From the IMG/VR virus record IMGVR_UViG_3300048856_000029, positions 88,846 through 115,723 of that record: a stretch of 26,878 bases of DNA; one strand, 5' to 3'. Under the pieces are notes generated by a model. That model ran no database searches, had not been told where the DNA came from, and saw only the letters and a program-made list of their open reading frames with translations. Positions 3,471 to 23,006 of the stretch are shown here, piece after piece (the first letter of the stretch is position 1; every line of letters starts with the position of its first letter). Source of the DNA: a virus. The position numbers were made by a program, and so were the translations under genes.

Positions 3471-3830
3471 TCGTGGCTCCAGGCGAGAGATTCGCTGGCA
3501 CCACACTGGCTATAAGCCTACCCTCCGGGCCGGGCGTCAATGAAGAAAACGGTGCTACTCACGGAGTCGTTTCCAACTCGCCCTTTTTGAACGAGATAGG
3601 GGATAACTTTCCCTCATTAGCTGCACAAGCCGAGACCGCAACCAACCCGCACCAAGCCCCAGGACCGGTCCAAGCTTGCCCAGGCACCCTGAGTCGTCAA
3701 GATAGCCTTGCCGGTTCTTGACAACCTTCCTTGCCTCGGCTGTTCACGCACCATCTCCAGATGATGAGTCCTTAACCAGTTCTTTCCCAAAAGTTTACAC
3801 CCAAGCCACTCTCCCAGATTTTCACCCTCC

Positions 3831-4022
3831 GTAAAGAACGAAATCGCTAATTAACGCAATCGCTAAAACTATCGTAAAAGCGCACAGAACAGCTCCAGCG
3901 ACAAAAGCGATCACAGAGACAGCAAACACTCAGGAAACGCATCACAGCAAAACGTCGCAAGAAACAACAAGCGCTCCAGCGTCATCTCACGAAACGCAAG
4001 CACAGCAGCGCTTGATAGATAT
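3831..4022. other. A-rich, GG/CC-depleted non-coding patch starting with a TCGCTAA array
   Basis: Only 3 GG/CC in about 190 bp; strong A/C strand skew; no ORF. Confidence 0.7.
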
Positions 4023-4610
4023 CCCGAGCACTGACCCATAAAGAGCACCAAAGCTCACCCCGGCTCATCGACCACCGGAGAGCTAGACAGACACCTACAG
4101 GCTCAAGAGAGCACCAACAGCTATAGAAGCATGTGTAGACCATAGAGAGGGAAGAGAGCTGTCGATAGGTCTGATAGACGCGAGAGACTGTAGAGGTAGT
4201 GAGGGTTCCGCGCCATCATCCTCCCCTCTCCCACACCAGCACCCCGAGCTACCCACCCCGAGACGGCAAATTTCGACTGCCGGCCTTTTCCCGCTTCTAA
4301 CCCAAGATCGGGTCACTTAGCGTCTACAAGGTCTCGATGATGAGACACAGCGTTAAGGTCGATAGGAGTTTGACATGCCCTCAGACCGAAATGACTTAGA
4401 GGCGGTTCGCTCGACGGGGCGTATCGCCTCTCTTTTTGGCTAAACGGATAAACCAGGAACCAGGCGCGTCCGCTCCCTAGACCGGGGAATGTGGGTGATC
4501 CATCGAGGTGACACCCGTGCCGGAGATCCTTCATCCTCGCCGGACCATGGACGATCCATGGATAAGCCGCGGACCCTCCATGGCGAGCCGGAACCTTGTC
4601 GATCCGAGGA

Positions 4611-4694
4611 CACAATCCGGTCCGTGCTCAGTCAATTATTACTTATTCCTAAGAGTATTATATATATATATGACTGACGACGGCAAAAATTGTG
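4611..4694. repeat. ~85-bp imperfect palindromic element, copy A (inverted homolog at 18096-18183)
   Basis: CACAATCCGGTCC..TCAGTCAATTATTACTTATT..(TA)n..TGACTGACGACGG..ATTGTG; aligns with the reverse complement of 18096-18183. Confidence 0.8.
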
Positions 4695-4902
4695 ACAGGA
4701 TTGTGGCACGCTCCGGCACGTAAGAGTCCTTGACTTCCCTGTCATCTCTCCTCGGCTTGTCCATGGCGCCCGCCAGCGGCTCCCTGGCACGCAATCGTGC
4801 CAGCCCTGCGCCATTTTCTATCCTGAAATCAAAGCGTTAGTGTCTAAACATCGAAAGCGAAACGACGCTTTCGACAGTCAACAACGCTCACAGGAGAGAC
4901 AC

Positions 4903-5589
4903 ATGACCAAGTCCAAGAACGTCCAGGCACCCGCAGGCCAAGGCAAGCTCGAAGAATACGCCTTCAAGACCGCTGCCGGCCGCTACACCACCCAGCAGGT
5001 GATGGAATACGCGGCCAAGGTGAAGGCAGCCTTCGACGACCGCATCAAGTTCGAAATCACCTCCTCACCGTCCGGCTCGGCGAACCTGCCGATCGTGGAG
5101 AAGCTCAACAAGCGCCTCGAGACGATCAGCCTGCCCGACGTCACCCGTGGCCTGATGGAGCTCGGCGCCGACCCCAACTTCATCAACCACACAATGAGCA
5201 AGGATGGGAACGGCGCACGCTTCAACATCTACGCCATCGACAAGGCGATCAAGCTGGTGAAGTTCCTGATGTCGACCGACAAGGTGCCGGCTGTTCTCTT
5301 CGCCTGCCTCAAGTCGATGATCAACTTCAAGGCGGCCGGCGAGACGTTCACCAGGGAATTCGCTGAAGCCGCCGTCTGCGACAAGATCCGCCTTGAGCCC
5401 TCTGCCGGCGCCAAGCTGCTCATGCGCCACACCGTCGACAAGTCGACCGCCTCGACGCAGACCAGCTCCAATATGCGCGTGCTGGCAAGCCTGGGGCTCA
5501 TCAAGGTCAACGGCTCTGCTCGGGCCGCTTCCTACGAGTTTGCAGATACGGACCAGGCGAAGTATCTGCAGAAGCTCGTCGCTGCCTAG
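4903..5589 (+). CDS. 228-aa protein, paralog of 7091-7660; possible C-terminal winged helix
   Basis: AGGAG RBS and ATG at 4903; phage-typical codon usage; NMRVLASLGLIKV..SYEF resembles a wHTH helix plus wing. Confidence 0.85.
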   Translation: MTKSKNVQAPAGQGKLEEYAFKTAAGRYTTQQVMEYAAKVKAAFDDRIKFEITSSPSGSANLPIVEKLNKRLETISLPDVTRGLMELGADPNFINHTMSKDGNGARFNIYAIDKAIKLVKFLMSTDKVPAVLFACLKSMINFKAAGETFTREFAEAAVCDKIRLEPSAGAKLLMRHTVDKSTASTQTSSNMRVLASLGLIKVNGSARAASYEFADTDQAKYLQKLVAA

Positions 5590-5616
5590 TCTCGCCGGAT
5601 AAGCAGCGACCTGGTG

Positions 5617-5652
5617 GAAGGGGAGAGGACGTGTGGAGCCTCTCCCCTTCTT
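5617..5652 (+). terminator. hairpin, probable terminator
   Basis: GAAGGGGAGAGG-N10-CCTCTCCCCTTC-TT just after the stop codon. Confidence 0.6.
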
Positions 5653-5905
5653 GCCCTGCCTGACCGATCCATGGCTTCACCATAAACCGGTGGGGTCCAT
5701 GGGACCGGTGGCCGGGGAACCAAGCGTGAGCACGCCATGGGTCGGGGAAGGCTTGGGTGTCGGTCCAGCCATGGACAGGCCAAGGTGTCGCCGCGTCCAG
5801 GCCGTGGCCTCCCTGCCCCACTCGGCGCCAGCATCTCACCTCCCGCAATCCTTCTGGGCAATTGCGATGATTAGTCATCGACAAGCGAACGAGAGGATTT
5901 CTCAA

Positions 5906-6196
5906 ATGGACGTCCACTTCAACACCGGCCGACTCTACACCGCTGCAGGCCAAGTCATTCGTGCCGTCTGGGACAAAGAGAACGAGGTGATCCACTTCGC
6001 CGACTTCTCTCGTGCGTGCAATGGCTCGATCGACGCGCCCGAGTGGATGATCAACTTCACCACGCCGGGCGGGCTCGCCAGGTTCGTGATGGAGCACTAC
6101 GACCGGCACGCCTACAAGAGCACCCCGCAGTCCTGGGAGCTCCTTATGGTGAAGGGCCGGGATAGCCAGGCCCAGGTTCATCACTTCGGCATGTGA
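5906..6196 (+). CDS. hypothetical early phage protein (96 aa)
   Basis: GAGAGGA RBS and ATG 5906 (MDVHFNTGRLYTAAGQVI); the upstream extension in the ORF track looks non-coding. Confidence 0.75.
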   Translation: MDVHFNTGRLYTAAGQVIRAVWDKENEVIHFADFSRACNGSIDAPEWMINFTTPGGLARFVMEHYDRHAYKSTPQSWELLMVKGRDSQAQVHHFGM

Positions 6197-6279
6197 GCGG
6201 CGACAAGCGACTACCAGTTTCGCTAATTCGCTATTTCGCTATTATGCTATTGTCAGCAACGAGACGAAGAGGTTCTCAC

Positions 6280-6468
6280 ATGACCATGATCCCTGCCCCC
6301 AAGCGCGTCATCCGCCTCGAGCCCATGGCGCCCATGCGTCCACTCGCCGGCCTGAAAGAGCCGTTGATCCAGACCACCAAGGACAGCTTCGCGTTCATCG
6401 CCTTCATATCGTTCGTGGCCCTGGTTGCTGCGATCGCCAGCATGGTCTCGTTCCAACCACCCGTCTGA
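6280..6468 (+). CDS. small single-pass membrane protein
   Basis: GAGG RBS and ATG 6280; C-terminal TM segment FAFIAFISFVALVAAIASMV. Confidence 0.7.
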   Translation: MTMIPAPKRVIRLEPMAPMRPLAGLKEPLIQTTKDSFAFIAFISFVALVAAIASMVSFQPPV

Positions 6469-6493
6469 GAGGAGGTGATCCATATCTCGCGTT

Positions 6494-6522
6494 AGCCGGC
6501 CCAGAGCCGGCTTTCGTCGTTT
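6494..6522 (+). terminator. probable intrinsic terminator
   Basis: AGCCGGC-CCAGA-GCCGGCT followed by TTCGTCGTTT. Confidence 0.5.
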
Positions 6523-6762
6523 CAGGGGTAGCCATGACTGAGGTAGCGGGGTTTTCAGGAACCGGTGGGCTCTGGGAGCCGGGGAATGGCACTGCGTCCA
6601 TTCCCCTTTGTAGCCGTGGGTGTGTGATCCGCATCCGAGGATGCGCCTCGGCTGGAACGACTCTAGGCCCATCCATGGTCAGTGGCCACCCTAAAATCCA
6701 GGAACCAACCACTTTCGCCCCTGGTGTCGCCATCCCTCGCCGGCTCCCGATCCAGCTCCACA

Positions 6763-6796
6763 GTCGCTGCGGCTCGTCGCTGCGGCTCGTCGATGC
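6763..6796. repeat. 13-bp tandem repeat, about 2.6 copies
   Basis: GTCGCTGCGGCTC GTCGCTGCGGCTC GTCGATGC at the left edge of the GG/CC-free zone. Confidence 0.8.
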
Positions 6797-6800
6797 ACGC

Positions 6801-6824
6801 AAAAGAGCGCGCTTTCGCGCGCTC
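6801..6824 (-). terminator. intrinsic terminator of the GG/CC-free operon
   Basis: Minus strand GAGCGCGC-GAAA-GCGCGCTC-TTTT (GNRA loop); stem built without GG/CC. Confidence 0.75.
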
Positions 6825-6843
6825 CTCTGTCTAAGTTGTATCG

Positions 6844-7020
6844 CTATTCTGCGTGTCGTTCGTCGCGCTTGTAGCTCACTAGAGACGCGATATCGACGCT
6901 ATCGAAATCGTCGTCTAGCAATTCGACGTCAACGCGCAATGCGTTGATGTTATTCATTAGCTGTTGCTCACGAAAGCGCTCGCGCTCGCGACGTTCTTTC
7001 TTGCTCAAGTGAATGCGCAT
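6844..7020 (-). CDS. 58-aa protein with basic N-half and acidic C-half; lacks Gly/Pro/Trp
   Basis: ATG at 7020 with TAAGAGA RBS; lies between the 189-aa gene and the terminator. Confidence 0.6.
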   Translation of the reverse strand: MRIHLSKKERRERERFREQQLMNNINALRVDVELLDDDFDSVDIASLVSYKRDERHAE

Positions 7021-7049
7021 GTTCAAATCTCTTATTCGACGTTGAGAGA

Positions 7050-7074
7050 GACTAGCGCGACGAGCGCGCTAGTC
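7050..7074. other. perfect 10-bp-stem hairpin between the two GG/CC-free genes
   Basis: GACTAGCGCG-ACGAG-CGCGCTAGTC. Confidence 0.75.
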
Positions 7075-7090
7075 ATTCAATTTTGACTTA

Positions 7091-7660
7091 TCACGCAAAG
7101 CGCGCAACGATCGCTTGAACAATCTCGTTATCGTTGATTGCGTAAGTATCGCGCGACAACTGAGAGACGACGTTGATAGCAGCGAGCGCGCGCATGTTCA
7201 TCGTTGCATGACGCTTTGCAGACGAATAAGCAGTCTTGCGACGATAATAGAGATGAACGCGCTCTTTCGCGACTTTCAAGTCTTTGTTGAGCGCAATCTC
7301 GAAATCAGAAAGACGAATGTTCTTTTCATCGTTCTTCTTGAAGTTCGCGAGCGTGCGAATGCACTCTTCGACACATGACTTAAGATCTTCGATCTTCTTT
7401 TGATCGATCACGAATGAGAGCACGTCAGCGACGTTTTCGAGCGCTTTCATGTCGAACTTGTCGTCTGCTTGTTTCTTGTCATGCGCAAAGTCTGCGACGA
7501 CTTCGCAGCGTTCAAGCAGATCAGCGACTTTCTGTTGAGAAACGACCAGAGTGCACTTCTTGATGAAGTTCAGCGAAGCGCTCGACTTGTCGTTCTTCAG
7601 TTCTTCATCGTAGCGAGCAGACAGCGATGCAGCATACTTGTTGAGCGTTACGTTCGTCAT
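7091..7660 (-). CDS. 189-aa protein without Gly/Pro/Trp; paralog of 4903-5589
   Basis: Long ORF with AAAGAGAG RBS; colinear motifs shared with 4903-5589 (YAA, SASL/SANL, NFK, NMRxLA). Confidence 0.85.
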   Translation of the reverse strand: MTNVTLNKYAASLSARYDEELKNDKSSASLNFIKKCTLVVSQQKVADLLERCEVVADFAHDKKQADDKFDMKALENVADVLSFVIDQKKIEDLKSCVEECIRTLANFKKNDEKNIRLSDFEIALNKDLKVAKERVHLYYRRKTAYSSAKRHATMNMRALAAINVVSQLSRDTYAINDNEIVQAIVARFA

Positions 7661-7721
7661 GTTAGTCTCTCTTTCTCTCTTTGTTGTGAAGCGTTGTTGC
7701 TTCGTCGTGTTGACAATGATG

Positions 7722-7749
7722 AATATACAGATTGATTTGATAGTTGCAA
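7722..7749 (-). promoter_or_regulatory. putative sigma70-like promoter of the GG/CC-free operon
   Basis: Minus strand TTGCAA-N16-TATATT about 60 bp upstream of ATG 7660; TCGCTAA array immediately upstream. Confidence 0.55.
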
Positions 7750-8148
7750 TAGCTATTTCGCTAAATCGCTAACTTTTTTATGGAGATCGGGATTCGCTTA
7801 TAGAACGTCACAGACGCGCATAGACGCTTGAGCAGTGTCTCACAGCGCAGAGTGCTCGGGATCGACTGTGTGACGCGCTGTGTGTCGAAGCGCGCGCAAT
7901 CGAACGTGCAAGCGACAGTGTGAAGCGAGATAGTTGCGATGAAAGCGAAGTCTTAGAAAAATCGTGGGTAGCTGAAGGGGATGCCTTCTGGCGCCGGAGC
8001 ACTTCCGGAATGGGACTACCTCTCCTAGCGCCCTATCAGGACGGACAGCTCTCTACACGCCGGTCGGTAAAGATCGGTCAAGCTCTCCTCTGCCCCCCCG
8101 CAGCCCGGTATCCTGGCGCCCTGACTACCTATCCTGCGCCTCAGCTAA

Positions 8149-8166
8149 TCATTCAGTATTGACTTA
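8149..8166. promoter_or_regulatory. 18-bp palindromic operator
   Basis: TCATTCAGTATTGACTTA; consensus T(C/A)AGT(C/A)A-N4-T(G/T)ACT(G/T)A. Confidence 0.7.
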
Positions 8167-8182
8167 TCGTGAAGCGCCTTCT

Positions 8183-8797
8183 ATGGTTCCTGCCATCATC
8201 CATACGGAGCTTTCCCCTATGAACACCTTTCCCCAGGGCATCCTCGCCTCTTCCGACGGCCGCATGATCGTCGATCTCGAAAACGGTCGCATCCTCATCA
8301 CCGATCCGCCTGCAGATCCGGCCGCTGACTTCGAGGAATACTACGAATACGAGGTGCCGGCCGCGCTGTCGGTTCTCCTGGTCGACGGCAAGACGGTTTC
8401 GATGGAAGACGTCGCTGCAGTCGGCGAGAAGGACGGTCGCCTCTATATCGTTCATGCCAATGGCGCTGTGACCCACCTCTCCTACCCGTTCATCTCCTGG
8501 ACCGCTGTCGATACCTTCGCGGAGCCGGACGTCGATCGGGGCGATGTCACCGAAGATGCCGCTTGCGACTGTGAGGTCTGCAACCAGGAGCCGGAGCTCG
8601 ATCGCGAGGCGCTTGATGGCCTGAAGGCGAAGATCCGCGCCGAGAACGAACAGCGTGCTGCCGTGAAGCAGGCTGTCAACGAGGAGCCGCAGGTCGTCAA
8701 CGTGACCATGAACGTCGCCGCCCCGGTCGCCGAGACCGTGCAGCGGATGGTGCAGGAAGCCCTGCGCAACGCCGTCCGCATGGGTCACTTTCGCTAA
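8183..8797 (+). CDS. acidic hypothetical protein with CxCxxC
   Basis: Long ORF with phage codon usage; start uncertain (8183 or 8219). Confidence 0.75.
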   Translation: MVPAIIHTELSPMNTFPQGILASSDGRMIVDLENGRILITDPPADPAADFEEYYEYEVPAALSVLLVDGKTVSMEDVAAVGEKDGRLYIVHANGAVTHLSYPFISWTAVDTFAEPDVDRGDVTEDAACDCEVCNQEPELDREALDGLKAKIRAENEQRAAVKQAVNEEPQVVNVTMNVAAPVAETVQRMVQEALRNAVRMGHFR

Positions 8798-8826
8798 TTC
8801 GTTAATCCGCTAAAGGACGAAATCCG

Positions 8827-9069
8827 ATGCACGATGGTCTGCCCGTCAAGGGCTACAAGCCGCAGAACCAGGAGAAGATTGACCTGGTCAACGCCAACAA
8901 GGAGCTCGAGGAGCGTTGTCTGCGCCAGGCAGAACGGATCAAGGCTGATCCGAACTACGACGGCCGGATGGCCGCCCTCGCCTTCACCCATATCCAGGAC
9001 GCCTTCATGTGGCTGAACCGCGCCGTCTTCCAGCCGGCCCGCGTCTCGCTGCCGGAGGACAGCCGTTGA
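8827..9069 (+). CDS. Acb2/Tad1-fold cyclic-nucleotide sponge-like anti-defence protein
   Basis: VKGYKPQNQEKIDLVNANKE and RMAALAFTHIQDAFMWLNRAVFQP parallel the recalled Acb2 pattern (IKGYRxLSQEEID..N..KE / RW.AI..T..Q...M...RA.AQP). Confidence 0.75.
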   Translation: MHDGLPVKGYKPQNQEKIDLVNANKELEERCLRQAERIKADPNYDGRMAALAFTHIQDAFMWLNRAVFQPARVSLPEDSR

Positions 9070-9575
9070 GCGTTGTCGTCTATCACGACGGGATCATGGC
9101 AGCCGACACCCGAGCCTATTCGGGTGATCGGCATTTCGTGGGCAACAAGCTCAAGATCCACCGAATGCCGGACGGCTCGCTGCTGGGCATCGTCTCCAAC
9201 CAGGTCGGTATGCCCGAGGCGTTCAAGCAGTGGGTGGCAGAAGGCGCAGATCGCGAAGCGGTCATGCCGGATCAGCCCTCCTTCGAGGCGATTCATGTCA
9301 TGCCCGACGGCAAGATCTTCTATTACGACGATGGCTATACGCCGTCCGGGCCGATCGTCGCCCAGACGCTCACCATCGGCTCGGGCAAGAAGTATGCGCT
9401 CGGCGCCATCAAGATGGGTGCCGATGCGGTCAGGGCCGTCGAGATCGCCATCGACTGCGATGTCTGGTGTGGTGCGCCTGTCAGCGCCCTGCCCCTGAAC
9501 GAACCGCGGCTGGTCGAGGATCCGAAATCGCTATTTAGCGATATCGCTGATTCCGGGGAGGCGGCCGATGCTTGA
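9066..9575 (+). CDS. Ntn-hydrolase, HslV/proteasome-beta-like peptidase
   Basis: TTG start overlapping the upstream stop, GGAGG RBS; (M)SVVVYHDGIMAADT..KI..IGSGKKYALGAIKMGADAVRAVEIA..D. Confidence 0.75.
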   Translation: MSVVVYHDGIMAADTRAYSGDRHFVGNKLKIHRMPDGSLLGIVSNQVGMPEAFKQWVAEGADREAVMPDQPSFEAIHVMPDGKIFYYDDGYTPSGPIVAQTLTIGSGKKYALGAIKMGADAVRAVEIAIDCDVWCGAPVSALPLNEPRLVEDPKSLFSDIADSGEAADA

Positions 9576-9762
9576 GCTGAAGGTTCGCCTTTTCCTCCTG
9601 CAGATCGTCGGCTTCCTAGCGATTCTGGCATTCGTGATCTTTGGCCTGACGCTCTTCATGGCGATCTGGGTGGTCGGCGTGCCGCTGGTCATTCTGCTCG
9701 GCATCGCCTTCGGCCTGTGCCGGCTTGCCAACCGGATTGATCCGACGACAAGATGGAGATAG
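9568..9762 (+). CDS. small two-TM membrane protein
   Basis: GGAGG RBS; almost entirely hydrophobic. Confidence 0.65.
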   Translation: MLELKVRLFLLQIVGFLAILAFVIFGLTLFMAIWVVGVPLVILLGIAFGLCRLANRIDPTTRWR

Positions 9763-9788
9763 GGCGATTTCGCCCTTTCTTGCTTTCG

Positions 9789-10058
9789 CTATTTCCCTTC
9801 GCGGCTTTTCAGCCACATGTCGAAGGACTCCTCGAGCAGCTCCTTCATCGACATGCCGGCGCTCGACGCCGTCACCTTGTATTTCAGCTTGAAGTCCGGG
9901 AGCACCTTGAAGTTCAGATCGGTGAACAGATCCGACTTCTTGGTCTCCATGTTGTCTGCGACCAGGGTCGGCTTTTCCTCGGTCGCCAGAGCGCCGAGAT
10001 AGCTCATCTTCTGCGGCTTGGCCGGCACCTTGGCTTTCGTTCCCGTGGTCTGCTTCAT
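9789..10058 (-). CDS. ribbon-helix-helix partition adaptor (ParG-like, type Ib)
   Basis: Coupled to parA (ATGA overlap); flexible N-terminus then DLNFKV-PDFKLKYKVTASSAGMSMKELLEESFDMW, an RHH pattern. Confidence 0.75.
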   Translation of the reverse strand: MKQTTGTKAKVPAKPQKMSYLGALATEEKPTLVADNMETKKSDLFTDLNFKVLPDFKLKYKVTASSAGMSMKELLEESFDMWLKSREGK

Positions 10059-10699
10059 GCTGCGATCTCCTTCAATTCATTCAGTCGGTCGACGATCTCG
10101 GCAGCCAGGGTATCGGCGCGCTCATTGAGGGTCGAGTATTTGGTCTCGGAGACGGCCGCGCCGCTGTTTTGTGCCATCTGATACCCAGTCTTGGCCGCAA
10201 GATCCGTGTCGGCGACCAGGAAGCCCTGGTTCTTCAGGAACCCGGCTGCCTCGCGGGTCGCAAGATCGCTTTCCGTGGTCTTGTTGAGGACGAAGATCAG
10301 CTTGGTCAACGGCACGCCCTTGCTGACGAGCTCGTTGGCGAAGCGCACTTGCGGGCGCAGATCGTCGGCCGTCAGACCTGTCGGGATCACGACCAGGTCG
10401 GCGATGCGGGCTGCTTCCAGGGAGTTGATATCGGAGTCCGGCGCGCCATCGATGACCAGCAGGTCGAATGGCTGGCCTTTCAGCTTCTTGACCGAGTTCA
10501 TCGGCTCGGCTGCGATCTCCGGCTCCATGCCTTGTTGCATCCGCACGGCCACCCAGTCGACCGAGGTCAACTGTCGGGTGTTGAAATCGCAGATCTTCAC
10601 CGACCAGCCGGCGATCGCGAAAGTGCGTGCGAGCAGCCGGGCTAGTGTCGATTTGCCGACGCCACCCTTCTGGGATAGGCAGGCTATGACATATGACAT
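10055..10699 (-). CDS. parA: ParA family partition ATPase (short, type Ib)
   Basis: Deviant Walker A QKGGVGKST; IDGAP; ADLVVIP. Confidence 0.92.
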   Translation of the reverse strand: MSYVIACLSQKGGVGKSTLARLLARTFAIAGWSVKICDFNTRQLTSVDWVAVRMQQGMEPEIAAEPMNSVKKLKGQPFDLLVIDGAPDSDINSLEAARIADLVVIPTGLTADDLRPQVRFANELVSKGVPLTKLIFVLNKTTESDLATREAAGFLKNQGFLVADTDLAAKTGYQMAQNSGAAVSETKYSTLNERADTLAAEIVDRLNELKEIAA

Positions 10700-10739
10700 C
10701 GCTAAATCCTCGTTTTCGCCAATTCGCCTTTTCGCTAAA
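10697..10739. repeat. 8-bp-periodic TCGCTAA array over the parA start/promoter (parS-like)
   Basis: ATCGCTAA ATCCTCGT TTCGCCAA TTCGCCTT TTCGCTAA; a second array lies at 9763-9803 downstream of the operon. Confidence 0.65.
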
Positions 10740-10890
10740 CCTAGCTCTGCTTGGTTAACGAACTATGACTGATTTGGGAAGGGAGGAGGGTGACGCGGCC
10801 CATTTGCGTCAACAACGACAAAGAGAGACCCACACTTTCCAGGAGTGAGAGACGACTTGGTCTAGGGCCGCGCCGAGACCGATATAATTC

Positions 10891-11241
10891 TCAGTCAGGC
10901 ACAAAGCAACGCTGGTCGAAGAGGTATTCATACTGGTCGAGGCTCTCCACGACGATCATCGGCCAGGAGACCCGAACCGCATCTCGCATCGGCTGCTCCT
11001 CGATCCAGCACTTGGATGGATCAACACCGAACTGATGGGCAATGAACTGCTCGAGGGTCCAGTTATTCCGAGCCAGTTGGATCTTCTCGACGTCATTCGA
11101 CCGGGTATTTAACGAAAAGGCGATTTCGCGAATTGTGCCGGAAACGTCGTTGACCTCGGTGAAGGTCAGATGCCTGCGGTGTTTGGGCACGCTCATGTCG
11201 AGCGTGCCCATCTTCTTGCCATCAAACCAGACCTGGATCAC
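10891..11241 (-). CDS. hypothetical protein
   Basis: GTGA overlap with the kinase stop codon. Confidence 0.65.
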   Translation of the reverse strand: MIQVWFDGKKMGTLDMSVPKHRRHLTFTEVNDVSGTIREIAFSLNTRSNDVEKIQLARNNWTLEQFIAHQFGVDPSKCWIEEQPMRDAVRVSWPMIVVESLDQYEYLFDQRCFVPD

Positions 11242-11801
11242 AGCACCGGCCCGATAACGTCGATCAGCTTACCGGCCAGATCGTGCCGGGCATCTTCCTT
11301 GGAGAGACCGCGGGCCAGGCCGTCGTTCATGATCCGGTGATCGGCATAGGCCGGATTGTAGGTGTCGAACTCGAACTTCGACGGGCCGGCGAGGGGATTG
11401 ACGATCTCCAGGACAAGAGCGCCCCTTTCCTTCCAGTAGCGACCCTGCTCACGGCGAACGGAGCCGAACACGGCGCGAGAGCCCTTCGGGCGGGCATTGT
11501 GGCTCATCATCGGGATGACATCGCCACCGAATTTCTCCTCGAAGGCATTGCCGATCTCGCCGAGGATCTCGCGAACCTGCCACTTGCGGCCATTGATCTC
11601 GACAAATTCGAGCTTGCCGGCCTGGGTGAAGACCTGCTCGGCCGTCAGTCCCAGATAGTCCATTGCGATCTTGCGAAGGGGAAGGCCGTCATCGGCCAGC
11701 TCGTGCCCGTAGAGCTCGTTGATAATCTCGGCTGCGGTCGACTTGCCGGAGGTCGGATTGCCGCAAAGGGCGATGAGAGCGGGGTAGGGGGTGTAGTTCA
11801 A
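11238..11801 (-). CDS. deoxynucleoside monophosphate kinase-like P-loop protein
   Basis: IALCGNPTSGKSTAA; PLRK; REILGEIG; SVR; IMNDG; AGGAG RBS. Confidence 0.8.
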   Translation of the reverse strand: MNYTPYPALIALCGNPTSGKSTAAEIINELYGHELADDGLPLRKIAMDYLGLTAEQVFTQAGKLEFVEINGRKWQVREILGEIGNAFEEKFGGDVIPMMSHNARPKGSRAVFGSVRREQGRYWKERGALVLEIVNPLAGPSKFEFDTYNPAYADHRIMNDGLARGLSKEDARHDLAGKLIDVIGPVL

Positions 11802-11821
11802 GGGATTGCTCCTGTTGATGT

Positions 11822-11839
11822 TCAGTCAGTATTTACTGA
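11822..11839. promoter_or_regulatory. 18-bp palindromic operator
   Basis: TCAGTCAGTATTTACTGA upstream of the kinase. Confidence 0.75.
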
Positions 11840-11876
11840 ATACAACAGCAGCTGATTTAGGGAAAGGTCGATTTCG

Positions 11877-12053
11877 CTAATTCGCGATTTCTGCCGATGC
11901 TTCGCGGGCACTTTTCCGTCGCAGCAGGCGATTGAGGCGCTCCACCTCGTCGTTGAGCTCCTTGATCCGCTCCAGATAGTAGCTTTCCGAATAGGCCGAC
12001 AGACCACAGGAGTTGAAGAAATGGACGGGGTCGATCTTGCGTTCTTCGCTCAT
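11877..12053 (-). CDS. small coiled-coil hypothetical protein
   Basis: ATGA overlap with the helicase; GGAGG RBS. Confidence 0.6.
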   Translation of the reverse strand: MSEERKIDPVHFFNSCGLSAYSESYYLERIKELNDEVERLNRLLRRKSAREASAEIAN

Positions 12054-13663
12054 GCTGCCTCCTTCAAGGCCTTGATGCGCCGTTCGGCGAACAGCTTCCA
12101 CGGGAAATCGTCATTGACCGCAAGGATGCCTTCCTTGAAGCCGGGCGTGTTCTCGACGACGCGCCGGCGCGAGGTGGCGTGTTCGGCAAGCGTAAGATTG
12201 TTGGAGCAGGTATAGTCGGCGACGAAGGCGACGTTTGCCATGCCCTTCTTGCGCCGCAGACCACGGCCGATGCGCTGGCGCAGCGCTACTTCTGCCTTGC
12301 CACCGCCCGCGAGCTGGATCACCCCGAGGGCAGGGACGTCAACGCCGACGTCGACAATGGTCGAGCCGATCAGAACGTCGATCTCGCCGGCGCCGAGCTG
12401 CCGGAGCGCCTCGTCACGTTCCTCCTGGCTGTTCTCGCCACGCAGGAAGACCGCCTTCAGCCCGACCTTGGTCATCTTCTGGAGCAGGATCTCCCCATGC
12501 TCCATGCGCTGCACCAGGGTCAGCACCGGCAACTGGTAGAGCTTTGCCATCAGGGCATCGCGAATGATGTCCTTGTGCATGAGCTGGTTCTCGACATAGC
12601 CGAACTGGTAGGCGCGCTGCCAGGGCGAGGTGCGGAACAGCTTCGGATGCGGCTTCGAGGTGACGAACTTGAAGAACGGCTTGGCGAGAATGCCGCGGTT
12701 GATCAGCTCCTCTTCCGAAATGTTGATCAGCACCGAGCCGAATGCTGCCATCAGGCGCATATTGTCTTCAGCAGAGTCGCGCATGAAGGGCGTTGCCGTC
12801 AGAGCGACCCGGATCGTCGCGTTCTTGCAGTGCTTGAGGATCTGGTAATAGCTGTTGCCGCCCGCTTCATGGGCTTCCTCGCCGATCACAACGTCGATCA
12901 TCTCGAGGAATTTCAGATAGCGGTTCCGCTTTTTCGTCTTTTCGTTAAATCGCTCAAGGGCGATTTCGCGAACCTGCTCCTTGGACATGTTGCTGTCCTT
13001 CTTCTTGGAGCGATGGATCGACTTGACGACGGCCCGGATCTCTTCGTCGAGGTTAGGCTCCTCGAGCGCCTGGACGAGCGTCTGCACCATGCCGAGGTTG
13101 ATGCCCTTGACCATCTTCTCCTGACCGTCGCCGAGGACGCCGGTGTTGAAGTTGAGCGCGTCGACCTGGCGCTTCATCTGGTAGAGCAGCACACCGCGGG
13201 TGGTCAGGAAGAGGGTAGGGCGCCGGTAGCGGGCCATGACGAGCTTGGCGATCTTCGACTTGCCACCGCCCGTCGCCACGCGAATGATGCCGCGGCCGTG
13301 CTTCTCGACCTGGCGCAGCGCCTTCATCTGGTAGTCGTAGTCCGGATTATCATTGCCGAACTCGTCCACGATCGGGTTTTCGGGGCCAAGCGGGGCAACA
13401 TGCGGCTTGCGCAGGAGCTGAACCTTGTAGCCGCGGCGCGTCAGCTCCGAATGCACCATGTAGGCGAAGCCGGCCGGAAAGCTCGAGGTCTTGTATTCGT
13501 AGAATGAGGAGCGGCCGTCCCAGGTGCCCTGATTGAAGGCAAAGGACTGCTCGGCGCCGTCGACCATGTAGGAGAGCAGATCGGAAACGGTGTTCTCGAC
13601 TTCTTCGGTCGGGTCGATCAGCTTGGCGACGACAGCGTTATGGGCGAGCTTTACGGTTTTCAT
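12050..13663 (-). CDS. SF2 DExH helicase (UvsW/Res-III-like)
   Basis: ATGGGKS, EEAH, TAT, DVGVDVP, QRIGRGLR. Confidence 0.92.
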   Translation of the reverse strand: MKTVKLAHNAVVAKLIDPTEEVENTVSDLLSYMVDGAEQSFAFNQGTWDGRSSFYEYKTSSFPAGFAYMVHSELTRRGYKVQLLRKPHVAPLGPENPIVDEFGNDNPDYDYQMKALRQVEKHGRGIIRVATGGGKSKIAKLVMARYRRPTLFLTTRGVLLYQMKRQVDALNFNTGVLGDGQEKMVKGINLGMVQTLVQALEEPNLDEEIRAVVKSIHRSKKKDSNMSKEQVREIALERFNEKTKKRNRYLKFLEMIDVVIGEEAHEAGGNSYYQILKHCKNATIRVALTATPFMRDSAEDNMRLMAAFGSVLINISEEELINRGILAKPFFKFVTSKPHPKLFRTSPWQRAYQFGYVENQLMHKDIIRDALMAKLYQLPVLTLVQRMEHGEILLQKMTKVGLKAVFLRGENSQEERDEALRQLGAGEIDVLIGSTIVDVGVDVPALGVIQLAGGGKAEVALRQRIGRGLRRKKGMANVAFVADYTCSNNLTLAEHATSRRRVVENTPGFKEGILAVNDDFPWKLFAERRIKALKEAA

Positions 13664-13703
13664 GTTTTCTCGAATTGCCTATTGCGGTCTTTTCCATCTA
13701 TGA

Positions 13704-13721
13704 TAAGTAAATACTGACTGA
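13704..13721. promoter_or_regulatory. 18-bp operator in the divergent promoter region
   Basis: TAAGTAAATACTGACTGA; overlaps a minus-strand TATCAT -10. Confidence 0.75.
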
Positions 13722-13751
13722 TTGCTGCCACATAATCAAGGCAAGGACTGA

Positions 13752-14501
13752 ATGACATATCCTCAACCCCTGATGCTGGACCCGCGGGCGCTTTCGCCGA
13801 ATCCGTGGAACACCAACATCGTCACCCCGGAAAACGAGCGAAAGCTCGAGGAGTCCATCAAGCGACTTGGGTTCTTTCGTCCGGTCATAGTTCGCGAAAT
13901 CGCTAATTCGGGAATTAGCGATATCACATATCAGCTTCTGGGCGGCGAGCATAGAGCGCAGGCTGCAGTTCGCCTGAAGATTTCGAAGATCCCGGTCGTT
14001 AACCTTGGCCCGATCAGCGACCTGGAAGCCAAGGAGATCGGGATTGCCGACAATGCCCGATACGGCGTCGACGATCAGATCGCCTTTGCCGAGCTGGTCA
14101 AGGACATGGGCAATGCCGATCAACTCGAAACCTTCCTTCCTTATGCCGAGAGTGACTTCGCTGACCTCTTCGCATCTGCTGAAATAGATCTGGATGCTTT
14201 GGCGCTCGACGAGGATTTCGAGCGGAAAGAGGACAAAGCCGAGGACGACGAATCGGCTCAGCCGAAAGCGCCCAAGACCCACACGATCATCCGCTTCAAG
14301 GTCACGAACCGCGACGCCGAGGATCTCACCCGGCTGATCGAAGCGACCAAGCAGGGGCAGGGGTTCACCTTATCCGACGAGCTGACCAATGCGGGCGACG
14401 CCCTGGTCCATCTGCTGCTCAACAACAAGCCGGCCGCTGCCGGCGAAGACGATGATCTTCCCGAACTGGAAGACCTCGCCATCGACGGGGACGACGCATG
14501 A
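13752..14501 (+). CDS. ParB/Srx N-terminal domain protein 1
   Basis: LSPNPWNTN, LEESIKRLGFFRPVIVR, GGEHRAQAA, ADNARYG. Confidence 0.88.
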   Translation: MTYPQPLMLDPRALSPNPWNTNIVTPENERKLEESIKRLGFFRPVIVREIANSGISDITYQLLGGEHRAQAAVRLKISKIPVVNLGPISDLEAKEIGIADNARYGVDDQIAFAELVKDMGNADQLETFLPYAESDFADLFASAEIDLDALALDEDFERKEDKAEDDESAQPKAPKTHTIIRFKVTNRDAEDLTRLIEATKQGQGFTLSDELTNAGDALVHLLLNNKPAAAGEDDDLPELEDLAIDGDDA

Positions 14502-14677
14502 TCACCCCGAAGTTCGATGACTGCCGCTCCTGCGTCTTCTTCCTCAAAAATCGCCGCAACCCGATCTGCAAGAGCTGCGATGCGGGCGAGTTCTACGAGG
14601 AGAAGCACACCTGCCGGGAGAAGACCAACGACGAACTGATGAAGCTCTACGGGGAATATACCGATGACGACGAATAG
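14498..14677 (+). CDS. 59-aa Cys-rich protein (CxxC-N11-CxxC), not in the ORF track
   Basis: ATGA overlap; MITPKFDDCRSCVFFLKNRRNPICKSCDAGEFYEEK... Confidence 0.75.
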   Translation: MITPKFDDCRSCVFFLKNRRNPICKSCDAGEFYEEKHTCREKTNDELMKLYGEYTDDDE

Positions 14678-15335
14678 GCCGGTCCAACTGCTCGATATCG
14701 AGCAGATCAAGCCCTACGAGAACAACGCCAAGAAGCACTCGGCCGAACAGGTCGGCAGCCTGGTGAAGCTGATCGAACGCTTCGGCTGGACGCAACCGAT
14801 CGTCACCGACCGCGACTTCGTGATCATCGCCGGTCACGGCCGGCGCCTGGCAGCCCTTGAGATGGGGCTCAAGAAGGTGCCCGTCATCGTCCGCGAGGAT
14901 CTGACCAAGGACGAGGCCAACGCTCTCCGGCTCGCCGACAATCGCGTCTCCTCGACCGAATACGACCTGGCGCTCGAACAGGCGGAGCTGCAGGCGCTCT
15001 CCATGGTCGATCTCAACTTCGACCTCACCGATCTCGGCTATTCCGAGCATGAGCTGAACTTCTCGACCGCCGATCTTGGCGAGCTGGATGACTCCATCTT
15101 TGTCGACGACATCAACGGCGCGGTCGAAAAGCAGAAGAACGAGAACAAGGAAAAGGTCGAAGAGGTCGACGATGTCGCCGCGCCTGTCGTCGATGCGCTC
15201 GGCTTCAAACGTGTGACGATCGCCGAAAGCCGCGTGCTGCGCGACCTGATGGCCCGCATGGAAGTCGCGACCGGCAAGAAGGGCGCTCCGGCGCTGATCG
15301 ACTTCGTCTCCTCCAGACTGGAAAAGGCCGCATGA
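14664..15335 (+). CDS. ParB/Srx N-terminal domain protein 2
   Basis: IKPYENNAKKH, FGWTQPIV, IIAGHGRRLAA, LRLADNR. Confidence 0.9.
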   Translation: MTTNRPVQLLDIEQIKPYENNAKKHSAEQVGSLVKLIERFGWTQPIVTDRDFVIIAGHGRRLAALEMGLKKVPVIVREDLTKDEANALRLADNRVSSTEYDLALEQAELQALSMVDLNFDLTDLGYSEHELNFSTADLGELDDSIFVDDINGAVEKQKNENKEKVEEVDDVAAPVVDALGFKRVTIAESRVLRDLMARMEVATGKKGAPALIDFVSSRLEKAA

Positions 15336-15757
15336 TCGAGATCGAGGCACAGAACGTCATCGATCTGAAGTCGCGCAAGCCCTACCGGCTGGTGCGCGAG
15401 GAGCAGATCAAGGCTCGGCGCAAGGCCAAGCGCCAGGCAAAGAAGGAACTCGATGAAGGGCGCGCCGAATACCGCGAGGCGATTTTGTCGTCTCTGCGCC
15501 AGATCACGAAACTCGTCGAGGAGGGCAAGCTGCATGGCCTGATCCTGCTTGCGCAGGAGCCCAAGTCGAAACTCTTCCTGACCGACGTGGTCCTGGATGA
15601 ACGGTTTGTGCCGGCACAGGATCTGTTCGCCTTCGTCGGCTGCCTCGAGGCTCTGAAGCTGGAGCTGTCGGATGCCTCGACGATGGCGCCGGTGCTCGGT
15701 CTCGACGGCTCGGTCATCGATCCGGAAGTCAACTACATCGAGGATTACGAGGAATGA
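15332..15757 (+). CDS. hypothetical protein
   Basis: Translationally coupled at both ends. Confidence 0.75.
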   Translation: MIEIEAQNVIDLKSRKPYRLVREEQIKARRKAKRQAKKELDEGRAEYREAILSSLRQITKLVEEGKLHGLILLAQEPKSKLFLTDVVLDERFVPAQDLFAFVGCLEALKLELSDASTMAPVLGLDGSVIDPEVNYIEDYEE

Positions 15758-16398
15758 GCGTCTACACGATCAACAAGGCGTTTACGTCGTCCGTCGAGCG
15801 CACGCCGCGGGTGCTGGAGATCGCCGAGGGTTTTGGCCTGGGACTGACCGACAAGAGGTTCGTCGTCTATGACAACCTTCAGCTCGAGGTGAAGCAGGGC
15901 GATATCGTCTATATCCTCGGCCAGTCGGGCTCGGGCAAGTCGCTGCTGCTGCGCGACCTGGTCTCGCAGATGCGCGGGGAGGGGAGGGCGGTCGCCGACC
16001 TCAACGAACTGGTGCTGCCGGACGTGCCGGTGATTGACTGTCTCGGCACCACGACCACCGAGGCCACCAATCTGCTTGCCAAGGCCGGCATCTCCGACGC
16101 CTGGATCTATATCCGCAAGCCCTCCGAGCTTTCCGACGGCCAGCGCTATCGCCTGAAACTGGCGATGATGCTCGGCATGAACGCTGATGTCTGGGCGGCC
16201 GACGAGTTCGGAGCCGTGCTCGATCGCACCACTGCGAAGATCATCGCCTTCAATCTGCAGAAAGTCGCCCGAGAGAACGGCAAGACCCTGATCGTTGCGA
16301 CAACTCATTCCGACCTCGAGGAAGAACTGGGACCGACGCTGTCGATCCACAAGCGGTTCCGCGAAAAGGTCGACATCAAGGAAGGGCTGGCGGCATGA
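15754..16398 (+). CDS. stand-alone ABC-type ATPase
   Basis: GQSGSGKS, LSDGQ signature, ADEF Walker B, TTH H-loop; no permease nearby. Confidence 0.9.
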   Translation: MSVYTINKAFTSSVERTPRVLEIAEGFGLGLTDKRFVVYDNLQLEVKQGDIVYILGQSGSGKSLLLRDLVSQMRGEGRAVADLNELVLPDVPVIDCLGTTTTEATNLLAKAGISDAWIYIRKPSELSDGQRYRLKLAMMLGMNADVWAADEFGAVLDRTTAKIIAFNLQKVARENGKTLIVATTHSDLEEELGPTLSIHKRFREKVDIKEGLAA

Positions 16399-16884: not shown

Positions 16885-16997
16885 TGCGGCTGAAATCGCT
16901 AATTCTTGCTTTCGCTATTTCGCTGCTGGTGAGCACTTGCAGCGCGACAGCACCTGCACTCGCAAAACTCGACGGAGCGCGCTGTGAGCGAAACTGA
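16884..16997 (+). CDS. possible 37-aa signal-peptide-like ORF
   Basis: TGATG overlap, GAGGA RBS; MRLKSLILAFAISLLVSTCSATAPALAKLDGARCERN. Confidence 0.4.
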   Translation: MRLKSLILAFAISLLVSTCSATAPALAKLDGARCERN

Positions 16998-17850
16998 GAC
17001 GATTGTGACGCGATCTGACAGCGCACGAGCACGTTTCTCGCTGGCCGACGACATGTTCATCGAACGGGGCACGATCGAAGACTGGAACCTGCTGCACGAT
17101 CTCCACTACAAGGCGGAGAAGCTGCCGCTTGGACCGCGCTTCTGGCGTCTGGATCTGCATGGCGAGACGATCGGCGTCCTGGTGACGGGCACGCCGAAGG
17201 GTATGCTGCGCGAGCGGCACCTGGCCTTTCCGAAGCTGAAGCCGACCGGCCAGGAGACCAAGCTCACCAACACCAACCGCTATCACTACATCAACGCCAA
17301 CTTCCGGGTGATCTCGAGGTTCGTGATCGACACGATGTATCGCGGCATCGGCGCCGGCTACCGGATGATGAACCTGGTCTCCCGCATGGAGGGCAACACC
17401 TTCATGGAGATCCAGTCGTCCATGTCGAAGTTCAACATCTTCGGCCAGAAGGCAGGCTTCAAGTTCGTCAAGCCGATGAACGCCAACAAATACGAGCAGG
17501 GGATGAAGTTCTTCCGCTCGCATTTCCAGGCCACGCCCCAGGACTTCGAGGCGATCGTCAACGAGATTGAGGGCTCGCCGGCACGCGAGAGACTGATCCA
17601 GGCCTGCCGGGAGTTCTACCAGCGCAACTCGGCGCTCGAGAATACAGGTGCTGCCCGTGAAAAGGCCGACGAGCGCGTCGCGGCCATGACCACCCGTGGC
17701 CTGGTCAAAGGCATTCAGCAGGTCTGCCTGGCCTCGCCCATGTATGGCGTCTGGAAGTGCCCGGACAAGAAGGGCAGCGTGCCGGAGCGAATGCCGTTGC
17801 TTGCTTTCGATGCGCAGGGCACGTCCGAACCTCTGAGGTGGAAGGCCTGA
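16984..17850 (+). CDS. GNAT-fold acyltransferase, Mom-like candidate DNA-modifying enzyme
   Basis: LHYK near the N-terminus; ISRFVIDTMYRGIGAG acyl-CoA-binding motif; SSMSKFN. Confidence 0.75.
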   Translation: MSETETIVTRSDSARARFSLADDMFIERGTIEDWNLLHDLHYKAEKLPLGPRFWRLDLHGETIGVLVTGTPKGMLRERHLAFPKLKPTGQETKLTNTNRYHYINANFRVISRFVIDTMYRGIGAGYRMMNLVSRMEGNTFMEIQSSMSKFNIFGQKAGFKFVKPMNANKYEQGMKFFRSHFQATPQDFEAIVNEIEGSPARERLIQACREFYQRNSALENTGAAREKADERVAAMTTRGLVKGIQQVCLASPMYGVWKCPDKKGSVPERMPLLAFDAQGTSEPLRWKA

Positions 17851-18095: not shown

Positions 18096-18183
18096 CAATC
18101 CGGAGCCGTCTTCAGTCAATTATTATCTATCTACTAGCTTCATAGTAATAAGTAATTATTGACTGACGATGGACCGGATTGTG
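18096..18183. repeat. ~85-bp imperfect palindromic element, copy B, upstream of terS
   Basis: CAATCCGG..TCAGTCAATTATTA ... TAATTATTGACTGA..CCGGATTG; contains operator 18149-18166, with another operator at 18198-18215. Confidence 0.8.
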
Positions 18184-18229
18184 ACGATGTGCGATGATAA
18201 GTAAATGTTGATTGATCATAGTTAGGACG

Positions 18230-18904
18230 ATGGAAGAACAGGACACCTCTCCGGCCGAAGAGAACCAGCCGGATAACGCGAAAGCCAAGCGGCTCACCGA
18301 GGCGGAATACGCCGAGGCGAAGGAGCTATACGAACTGGGCAAGATGCGCCTCGTTGACCTCAGCGAGAAGTATGGCGTCACCCGGCAGGCTTTGTCGCAG
18401 CGCTTCAAGAACGATGGTGTTTCCTACGGCTCGCGCGCCGATGAAATGCAGGCTGCCGTCTCCGAAGGCGTGAAGGCCGCTGTTGCAACACACACCGGGC
18501 AGCAGGTCGCCGCGGCGCTGGAGCGCTATGTCGAAAAGCGTCTCGAGTGGATCGAGGAGACCAGGCTTGCCGGCTACAAGTCGCTAAAGCAGGCCGATAT
18601 TCTGGCAAAGAAGGTAGTTGCCGAGGCGATCCAGAACAAGGCGCCGATGGCGTCGACCGACGACGACCTGAAGGCCGTCCAGCGTTTCCAGAAGATCATT
18701 GCCGAGAACACGCTCACCCGGCTCGAAGTCCTGCGCGCCCATGAGGTGATCGAGGAAGACGATCTGCCGAACATCACGTTCGCCGACCTCACCGACGAAG
18801 ACATTCTCTCGCATCACCGTGACAACGGGCTGCTCGAGGAAGGCGTCGATCCGGAAGAGGTGCTTGCCGAACTCGCCAAGGGCACGGAGGGCCTGGGCGA
18901 ATGA
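18230..18904 (+). CDS. terminase small subunit (probable)
   Basis: N-terminal HTH (LVDLSEKYGVTRQALSQRF); directly upstream of terL. Confidence 0.75.
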   Translation: MEEQDTSPAEENQPDNAKAKRLTEAEYAEAKELYELGKMRLVDLSEKYGVTRQALSQRFKNDGVSYGSRADEMQAAVSEGVKAAVATHTGQQVAAALERYVEKRLEWIEETRLAGYKSLKQADILAKKVVAEAIQNKAPMASTDDDLKAVQRFQKIIAENTLTRLEVLRAHEVIEEDDLPNITFADLTDEDILSHHRDNGLLEEGVDPEEVLAELAKGTEGLGE

Positions 18905-22886: not shown

Positions 22887-22973
22887 GTGCAGTCAGTCAA
22901 TACTGACTGCACTTTTTCTCTTGCGGGATTCGGTTTCTCCAGGTTACACTATTGATCAGTCAATACTGATTGA
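22887..22973. promoter_or_regulatory. two operators upstream of the capsid gene; the first is in a hairpin followed by a T-run
   Basis: GTGCAGTCAGT-CAAT-ACTGACTGCAC-TTTTT and TCAGTCAATACTGATTGA. Confidence 0.75.
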
Positions 22974-23006
22974 ACGGCCGTAGGCCTTTTGTGTAGGAGA
23001 AAAACC

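Follow-up and report, generated by a model that had tools for sequence, protein, structure and literature searches.

The island and its genes

The window, meaning the whole stretch of 26,878 nucleotides analysed here (positions 88,846 to 115,723 of IMG/VR virus record IMGVR_UViG_3300048856_000029), contains an island that is almost free of the dinucleotides GG and CC. It carries two open reading frames on the minus strand, together with candidate control elements, as follows (window coordinates):

6803..6825, minus strand: candidate intrinsic terminator at the end of the unit, with a stem of alternating GCGC
6826..7965: GG/CC-free island (exceptions CC 7546, GG 7782, GGG 7789 and GGG 7858)
6844..7020, minus strand: small ORF P0002, 58 aa from ATG 7020 or 60 aa from TTG 7026
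7050..7088, no strand: 10-bp GC-alternating hairpin and one copy of the AGTMARTAYTGACT-like palindrome, between the two ORFs
7091..7660, minus strand: 189-aa gene P0001, predicted helical N-terminal domain and C-terminal winged helix (~residues 93-189)
7722..7749, minus strand: sigma70-type promoter candidate TTGCAA-16-TATATT for the 189-aa gene (consensus match only)
7750..7772, no strand: palindromic operator-like site adjoining the -35 box, with a near-perfect second copy before the SSB gene (G000:44835)
7948..7958, plus strand: boundary motif AAGTCTTAGAA, family consensus AAGTCYTAGA, at a sharp island edge

Across positions 6826-7781 (956 bp, 46.5% GC), we found one CC (7546-7547) and no GG, against an expectation from the composition of the segment itself of 50.6 + 53.0 GG/CC, or ~104 together. 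This recount agreed with the initial annotation, which had reported one CC, no GG and about 100 expected, and which had followed the depletion on to about 7965 with only three G-runs; we located these at 7782 (GG), 7789 (GGG) and 7858 (GGG). As had also been stated there, CG and GC were abundant (100 and 82 copies, with 51.8 expected of each), and low GC content was rejected as the cause, since both dinucleotides exceeded expectation. In the whole genome (115,723 bp, 58.9% GC), the mean spacing of GG/CC was 7.3 bp. Gaps of 722, 236 and 107 bp were the longest, each of them within the island, and the next was 80 bp. A whole-genome scan revealed a single island of this kind in 115.7 kb and no gap of comparable size for any other dinucleotide class. 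The claim that GG and CC are used freely elsewhere stood insofar as the island is unique, but short promoter-like patches were found to be GG/CC-free as well. An assembly artefact was ruled out, as a single contig, probably from the source sample, spans the island with zero differences and relatives retain it.

The rule also held in the non-coding DNA of the island, and both GG and CC were gone from the coding strand. The disappearance of both dinucleotides from coding and non-coding DNA indicates that the constraint acts on double-stranded DNA. Both translations contained zero Gly, Pro and Trp, as initially annotated, and the codons GCC, ACC, TCC, CGG and AGG were not used in the P0001 gene. 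When the synonymous codons of this protein were redrawn and GG/CC were counted in 5000 trials, genome codon usage gave 51.7 ± 5.4 GG/CC (minimum 33) and uniform synonymous codons gave 32.9 ± 5.2 (minimum 15), compared with the one observed. The purge reaches synonymous and codon-junction sites, and the loss of amino acids is insufficient as an explanation. The GAGAG-type ribosome-binding sites described for the island proved to be real, in a genome where GGA or AGG lies upstream of 110 of 151 called genes. Relatives carry a 64-aa ORF at the position of P0002, with the SVELL.. motif in common. The island had been described as a whole operon; both ORFs obey the rule, but a hairpin and an operator-like palindrome lie between them, and a single operon was not established.

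Just beyond the downstream edge of the island lies a short GTCGCTGCGGCTCGTC-like tandem repeat in two copies (6762-6795), and the contig of the GG-banning genome G001 breaks within a similar tandem repeat inside its own island. Additionally, TCTAAG(A), an inverted half-copy of the boundary motif, was seen at the opposite island edge (6830-6836, and 103937-103950 in Pseudomonas phage nickie), which may be due to chance.

The model of P0001 built from 48 sequences reached a pLDDT of 95; an earlier model from 13 sequences was poor. In the predicted structure, residues 93-189 form a winged helix, and nearly all of the top 50 structure matches covered these residues, with Z-scores of 6.2-8.2 and rmsd values of ~2-3 over 65-90 residues. 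Many of these matches were tied, and no single winged-helix family stood out among them; the whole fold matched solely uncharacterised phage proteins. Searches of Pfam, PHROG and PADLOC, and Foldseek against the PDB, gave no named family for P0001 or P0002. The simplest reading of the model is that P0001 is probably a DNA-binding regulator. It may bind the operator-like site at 7750-7772, for which the evidence is circumstantial: a site that differs between lineages recurs at the SSB gene in three genomes.

Gly and Trp are missing from all 13 close homologs of P0001, which together contain one Pro. Among 44 distant homologs, most lack Gly, Pro and Trp, and several carry Gly and Pro. A paralog with normal usage was found in the same genome (4903..5589, plus strand; probability 99.2%), 1.5 kb from the P0001 gene and convergent with it. 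It holds 101 GG/CC in 750 bp and encodes 12 Gly and 7 Pro, and the region upstream of it (4822-4893) is GG/CC-free. The genomes X66 and G002 also hold both paralog copies. With a paralog of ordinary Gly, Pro and GG/CC usage in the same genome, the purge is not a requirement of the fold, which places the constraint on the DNA.

Family, banned words and boundary motif

The island shared ~66% nucleotide identity with Rhizobium phages RHEph10, RHph_N1_10 and RHph_Y2_11, and by sequence comparison and the annotation of these relatives the genome is an SSU5-like rhizobial phage-plasmid of the RHEph10 group, of siphovirus type. Its 115.7 kb encode RepC, ParA and the 22-gene core common to SSU5, Cyrano and nickie, with the shared gene order of helicase, two ParB-like proteins, ABC ATPase, GNAT-like protein, terminase and portal. 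Gene order and a genome of ~110 kb are the likeness among the SSU5 supercommunity (SSU5, Cyrano/pLF82, pMT1-like and Acinetobacter members), Nickievirus and the RHEph10 group; the SSU5 supercommunity records that we examined carry no annotation of the island, the banned words or the boundary motif. In G001, the TerL gene is split by ~1.3 kb (89011-90342), possibly by an intron or intein.

A scan of GG and CC over the genome and its relatives found the island to be unique in the genome and retained in the relatives. In particular, the three cultured relatives keep it, with rare exceptions at differing places, rather than using GG/CC normally at the orthologous loci. Perfect GG/CC-free runs measured 693-1447 bp in further rhizobial contigs, 1137 bp in nickie and 1083 bp in Nican01, and the exceptions within rhizobial islands were nearly all GGT or GGA. 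The view of the initial annotation that selection acts on the DNA itself was upheld by this conservation, by the synonymous purge, by the involvement of both strands and by the normal paralog.

At the same position, SSU5 and Cyrano were free of [AC]GG[CGT] for 1302 and 1321 bp, with a mean spacing of this word of 24-29 bp and next gaps of 161 and 242. These two genomes seem only half-depleted until the GG contexts are split, as TGG and GGA are tolerated. A Klebsiella member was free of the identical word over 1301 bp. Of two Acinetobacter baumannii members, the first was free of [AGT]GG for 1008 bp or of GG[ACG] for 1155 bp, and the second was free of [ACT]GG[AC] for 1706 bp. Each enterobacterial and Acinetobacter word was the best among 2,250 patterns tried; it is nevertheless not a selection artefact, because the banned-word gaps are 46-64 times the mean spacing and each lies at the expected place. 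Lineages thus differ in the word that they ban: the members from rhizobia and Pseudomonas exclude any GG, those of Salmonella, E. coli and Klebsiella exclude [AC]GG[CGT], and the two from A. baumannii exclude two different words. This difference between lineages suggests that the phage probably sets the word.

Across the family, the word-free block measured 1-1.7 kb, and 4,000-15,800 banned-word sites were left elsewhere per genome. The island genes of SSU5, Cyrano and nickie are positional equivalents, with no detectable homology to P0001. JGB6 and BUCTxx99 were GG-free only in the non-coding flanks, and their positionally equivalent gene uses GG without constraint. The list of genes expressed in the Cyrano lysogen (PMC9928086) does not include the island genes CYRAN_112/113, which would suit a role at entry or in the lytic cycle.

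Several further observations were made during these scans. Six viral contigs (L114, L120, L124, L135, L140 and L142) combine the boundary motif with an island that is depleted only in part (gaps 130-297 bp), and they probably represent additional lineages whose banned words are longer. Among gaps in words other than GG, the largest was found in Cyrano (22940-23894, L081; 615 bp TA-free and 954 bp [AC]TA-free), probably a repetitive tail-fibre gene, and a viral contig of 36% GC was AA/TT-free for 216 bp (L045:1712-1928), 53 times the mean spacing. Two counts bear on the idea that unmarked island DNA might be over-represented in sequencing. Six short metagenome contigs, picked by the island gene, consisted almost wholly of island. 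Homolog clusters numbered 12 for the island gene and 1 and 6 for two neighbours, with search sensitivity differing between them.

The motif AAGTCYTAGA marks a sharp island edge in ten genomes, whose hosts span approximately three bacterial classes. Immediately beyond it the banned word was back at normal density, and the far side was GG-rich. The motif was also found in both partial cases, JGB6 and BUCTxx99. In nickie, JGB6, BUCTxx99 and Acinetobacter p5768 the island gene is directed towards the motif, whereas in the members from rhizobia and enterobacteria it is directed away; as the orientation differs, the motif is not part of the promoter. Nican01 was reported to have long direct terminal repeats (DTR (long) by PhageTerm; given without coordinates in PMC11256456, Table 2), which makes a terminase or end site plausible, and its record begins at the terminase. 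We consider AAGTCYTAGA a plausible candidate for a terminase or genome-end site, judging from its position. The papers on psageB1, ANB28 and Cyrano give no genome ends. A scan of viral contigs for the motif gave mostly chance matches, with no enrichment at contig ends, and special secondary structure beside it was not supported, as the folding of this DNA was no stronger than that of shuffled sequence (z -1.0). [quoted passage not shown]

Promoter-like patches and a candidate modification module

Intergenic GG/CC-free runs of at least 45 bp outside the island were compared with local shuffles. We found 24 such patches in this genome (G000), with 6.7 ± 2.4 expected, and an excess in the other GG-banning genomes (nickie, 34 vs 3.5; X66, 27 vs 7.1; G001, 19 vs 3.9; G002, 22 vs 3.0; Ancylobacter member, 28 vs 2.8); these intergenic counts are approximate, as the gene calls came from a simple codon-model script. 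CG/GC-free runs in the same test were at expectation. Patches were also at expectation in the control phages 7-7-1, D3 and RHEph01 and mildly raised in 16-3 (7 vs 3.3), and none of these four has an island. SSU5 and Cyrano showed no excess of word-free intergenic patches. The patches in the window were as follows:

3829..3895, no strand: example of a GG/CC-free promoter-like patch outside the island
4822-4893, 6214-6271, 11811-11860, 16974-17043 and 18106-18225: other patches

The patches contain -10-like boxes and two palindrome families, one AGTMARTAYTGACT-like and the other related to the site at 7750-7772. The AGTMARTAYTGACT-like 14-bp palindrome has ~44 copies genome-wide, mostly just upstream of genes, late genes included (in the window at 7075-7088, 8151-8164, 11824, 13706, 18151, 18200, 20190, 22895, 22958 and 23920), and is a candidate repressor operator or phage-specific promoter element. 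Repeats related to the 7750-7772 site were located at 6212-6245, 8791 and 9528, and its best second copy precedes the SSB gene, at the head of an SSB-exonuclease-RecA block. A site shared between the island and the SSB gene was present in three genomes (G000, X66 and G002), with a different sequence in each.

A candidate DNA-modification module (13752..16398, followed by a GNAT-like gene) lies upstream of the terminase:

13752-14501 and 14664-15335, plus strand: two ParB-like genes
between the second ParB-like gene and the ABC ATPase gene, plus strand: 141-aa ORF
15754-16398, plus strand: soluble ABC ATPase (phrog_293)
16984..17850, plus strand: GNAT-like acyltransferase (phrog_886, COG2401/MK0520-type), candidate writer
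18901-20178: terminase, downstream of the GNAT-like gene and followed by the portal gene

The GNAT fold was assigned from a weak Pfam match, Atlas features and annotation, and the soluble ABC ATPase adjoins this GNAT-fold protein, as in the COG2401 type. GNAT homologs were found in 31 phage and 967 plasmid records. The order ParB-ParB-ABC-GNAT-TerL was present in all genomes examined, and the four control phages had neither the GNAT protein nor the island; this link is a co-occurrence within one related family and so is not independent. GNAT and ABC were 97-99% identical among three same-word genomes (median 84-86%), and between two Acinetobacter genomes with different words they were 62% and 67% identical (TerL, 76%). 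Within the block, these two genes were conserved best between genomes with the same word and less well between genomes with different words, which lends weak support to a writer role. No other obvious modifier was found in the shared core, and no TGT/DpdA was found in G000 with PF01702, a model that matched 14 of 14 controls and that a very divergent DpdA may escape. Homology of the GNAT protein to Mu Mom was not significant (hhalign probability 0.7%, E 0.075, 22 columns), with a shallow profile that a remote kinship at the level of the fold may escape. The ParB-ParB-ABC-GNAT module is thus the only evident candidate for the writer of a DNA mark.

Interpretation and known systems

The banned word follows the phage and not the host, both strands are affected, and promoters and one unit are cleared. 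The best fit to this pattern, at a probability of roughly 60%, is a covalent mark made by the phage. To the same degree we favor the proposal that the phage marks its own GG-words, probably by the module, and that host RNA polymerase has to transcribe the regulator unit from a genome that carries the mark. Late in infection, the phage would place a covalent mark on its double-stranded DNA at a word centred on GG, and the mark would protect this DNA against host nucleases. The likeliest writer would be the ParB-ParB-ABC ATPase-GNAT module, with a word preference that drifts between lineages; that this module does write the mark we rate at slightly below even odds. The mark would hamper host RNA polymerase and DNA-binding proteins, and the winged-helix regulator unit would have to be transcribed from fully marked incoming DNA, which, we propose, is why all its target sites have been removed between the AAGTCYTAGA boundary and the terminator. 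The regulator would probably turn on the SSB/exonuclease/RecA operon, and in GG-banning lineages promoters and operators elsewhere would be locally cleared too.

A modification at GG/CC had already been the favored hypothesis of the initial annotation; the words, the promoter patches and the conserved candidate module fit it, but no modification was detected. Several results weigh against the mark. The gene in JGB6 and BUCTxx99 uses GG freely, so a block of elongation would not be universal, and such a block would require removal or dilution of the mark for the other genes, for which no eraser was identified. Moreover, SSU5 and Cyrano have no excess of word-free patches, the GNAT protein lacks significant similarity to Mu Mom, and the island genes of SSU5, Cyrano and nickie are not detectably homologous to P0001. 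In a bolder version, which we put forward tentatively, an undescribed guanine-directed hypermodification by a ParB-ABC-GNAT machine with an evolvable specificity of 2-4 bp would silence the incoming genome, infection would start from the unmarked island at the genome end, and the missing word would be the specificity of the enzyme. The family in that version includes plasmids, hundreds of them, from Klebsiella, E. coli, Acinetobacter, Salmonella and Yersinia.

A phage-encoded non-covalent reader that binds GG-words and silences or compacts the DNA, while island and promoters stay open, would also predict a lineage-specific word set by the phage, effects on both strands and cleared promoters. 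Such a reader could be a protein of the virion core or nucleoid, or a DNA clamp formed by the ParB/ABC machine; ParB-like and ABC proteins have DNA-handling folds. We consider it unlikely, because near-zero tolerance over 1-1.7 kb and the loss of three amino acids are better fitted by a covalent block at each site, and no candidate reader was identified in the core gene set.

Similarly improbable is staged entry combined with avoidance of host defence, in which the island would enter first and have none of the sites at which a host G-directed nuclease, a DNA-modifying toxin or a CRISPR system (through its PAM) could act, and its product would then protect the remaining DNA. T7, in its early end, and T5, in its first-step-transfer region, are established cases of target sites being avoided in the DNA that enters first. 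The island adjoins a conserved motif that may be a terminus, and the long direct terminal repeats of Nican01 (PMC11256456) agree with this idea. However, two words occur in one host species, the E. coli, Salmonella and Klebsiella members share the same word, and 4,000-15,800 sites are left elsewhere in each genome. Mid-genome promoter patches are also cleared, the gene orientation to the motif varies between lineages, and the product, a winged-helix protein, matched no defence family. NGG and CC PAMs, moreover, remain in enterobacterial islands. PAM avoidance (NGG or type I-F CC), which had been offered initially as an alternative, is therefore unlikely: in these lineages TGG and GGA are allowed and the banned words are longer, and A. 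baumannii has two words. Avoidance of GGCC, CCGG or CCWGG sites, suggested alongside it, cannot account for the loss in every GG context.

A physical need of the DNA near the end used for packaging or ejection (for flexibility, or for avoiding G-runs and hot spots of oxidation or cross-linking), or a mutational bias confined to this region, would agree with a purge anchored at a conserved site, and GG steps are known oxidation hot spots. We regard this as very improbable, as neither would switch between GG, [AC]GG[CGT] and [ACT]GG[AC] while tolerating TGG and GGGC, the DNA beside the motif folds no better than shuffles (z -1.0), and the edges are sharp with GG-rich DNA on the other side. A constraint on RNA or protein (an mRNA-directed toxin, Rho, or a fold excluding Gly, Pro and Trp) is scarcely credible and largely refuted already: most of the 44 homologs lack these residues, but GG and CC both vanish, upstream untranscribed DNA obeys, synonymous sites are purged, and Gly and Pro occur in the paralog and in several homologs.

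The proposed phage-made mark touches two known kinds of phenomenon, phage DNA hypermodification and site avoidance in early DNA. In the literature, within partial journal coverage, we found no description of the island, its words, the boundary motif or a modification in this family, and no chemical, kinetic or restriction data on the virion DNA of any member. New here are the lineage-specific words, the common boundary motif, the promoter patches and the unconstrained paralog; words, motif and patches tie the island and the enzyme module into one testable prediction. If true, this would mean a new DNA chemistry and a new anti-restriction strategy in a clinically widespread phage-plasmid family, and a design principle in which selection on two letters of DNA is strong enough to strip three amino acids from a protein family. 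In other phages, such 'forbidden-word islands' could make sequence alone enough to reveal unknown modifications and the motifs at which they lie.

Like T7 and T5, the phage studied here shows a local purge in a small, probably early and possibly terminal block. Unlike in T7 and T5, a word of 2-4 bp is reduced to zero copies with loss of amino acids, the word varies with the phage and not the host, and mid-genome promoters are cleared too. Phages 9g and CAjan carry DpdA 7-deazaguanine modifications at GA and GGC motifs, and the likeness would lie in guanine marks at very short motifs. In contrast to these phages, this genome gave no TGT/DpdA match, and the annotation of a close relative lacks a Que pathway. 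The bacterial Dpd system uses a ParB-like ATPase, DpdB (PMC12839542). Mu Mom, by its annotation, resembles the proposed writer in being a GNAT-type enzyme that marks the DNA of its own phage at a motif, late, after replication and shortly before packaging. It differs in acting on A and in having no ABC or ParB partners. We know of no motif-free island in Mu.

A further comparison is with an ABC ATPase-GNAT DNA-base acylation system (COG2401/MK0520 type), which Iyer, Zhang, Burroughs and Aravind reportedly predicted in 2013. The ABC ATPase and GNAT-like genes of the window match this type and lie beside the terminase (Cyrano annotation, phrog_293, phrog_886). That system is a prediction only, with no known base or motif, and the island would give it its first motif predictions. 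A long-predicted enzyme system could thus be brought to direct experiment, as the genomes predict the modified base context of each phage: GG in RHEph10 and nickie, [AC]GG[CGT] in SSU5 and Cyrano, and others in the Acinetobacter members, in phages that are already cultured.
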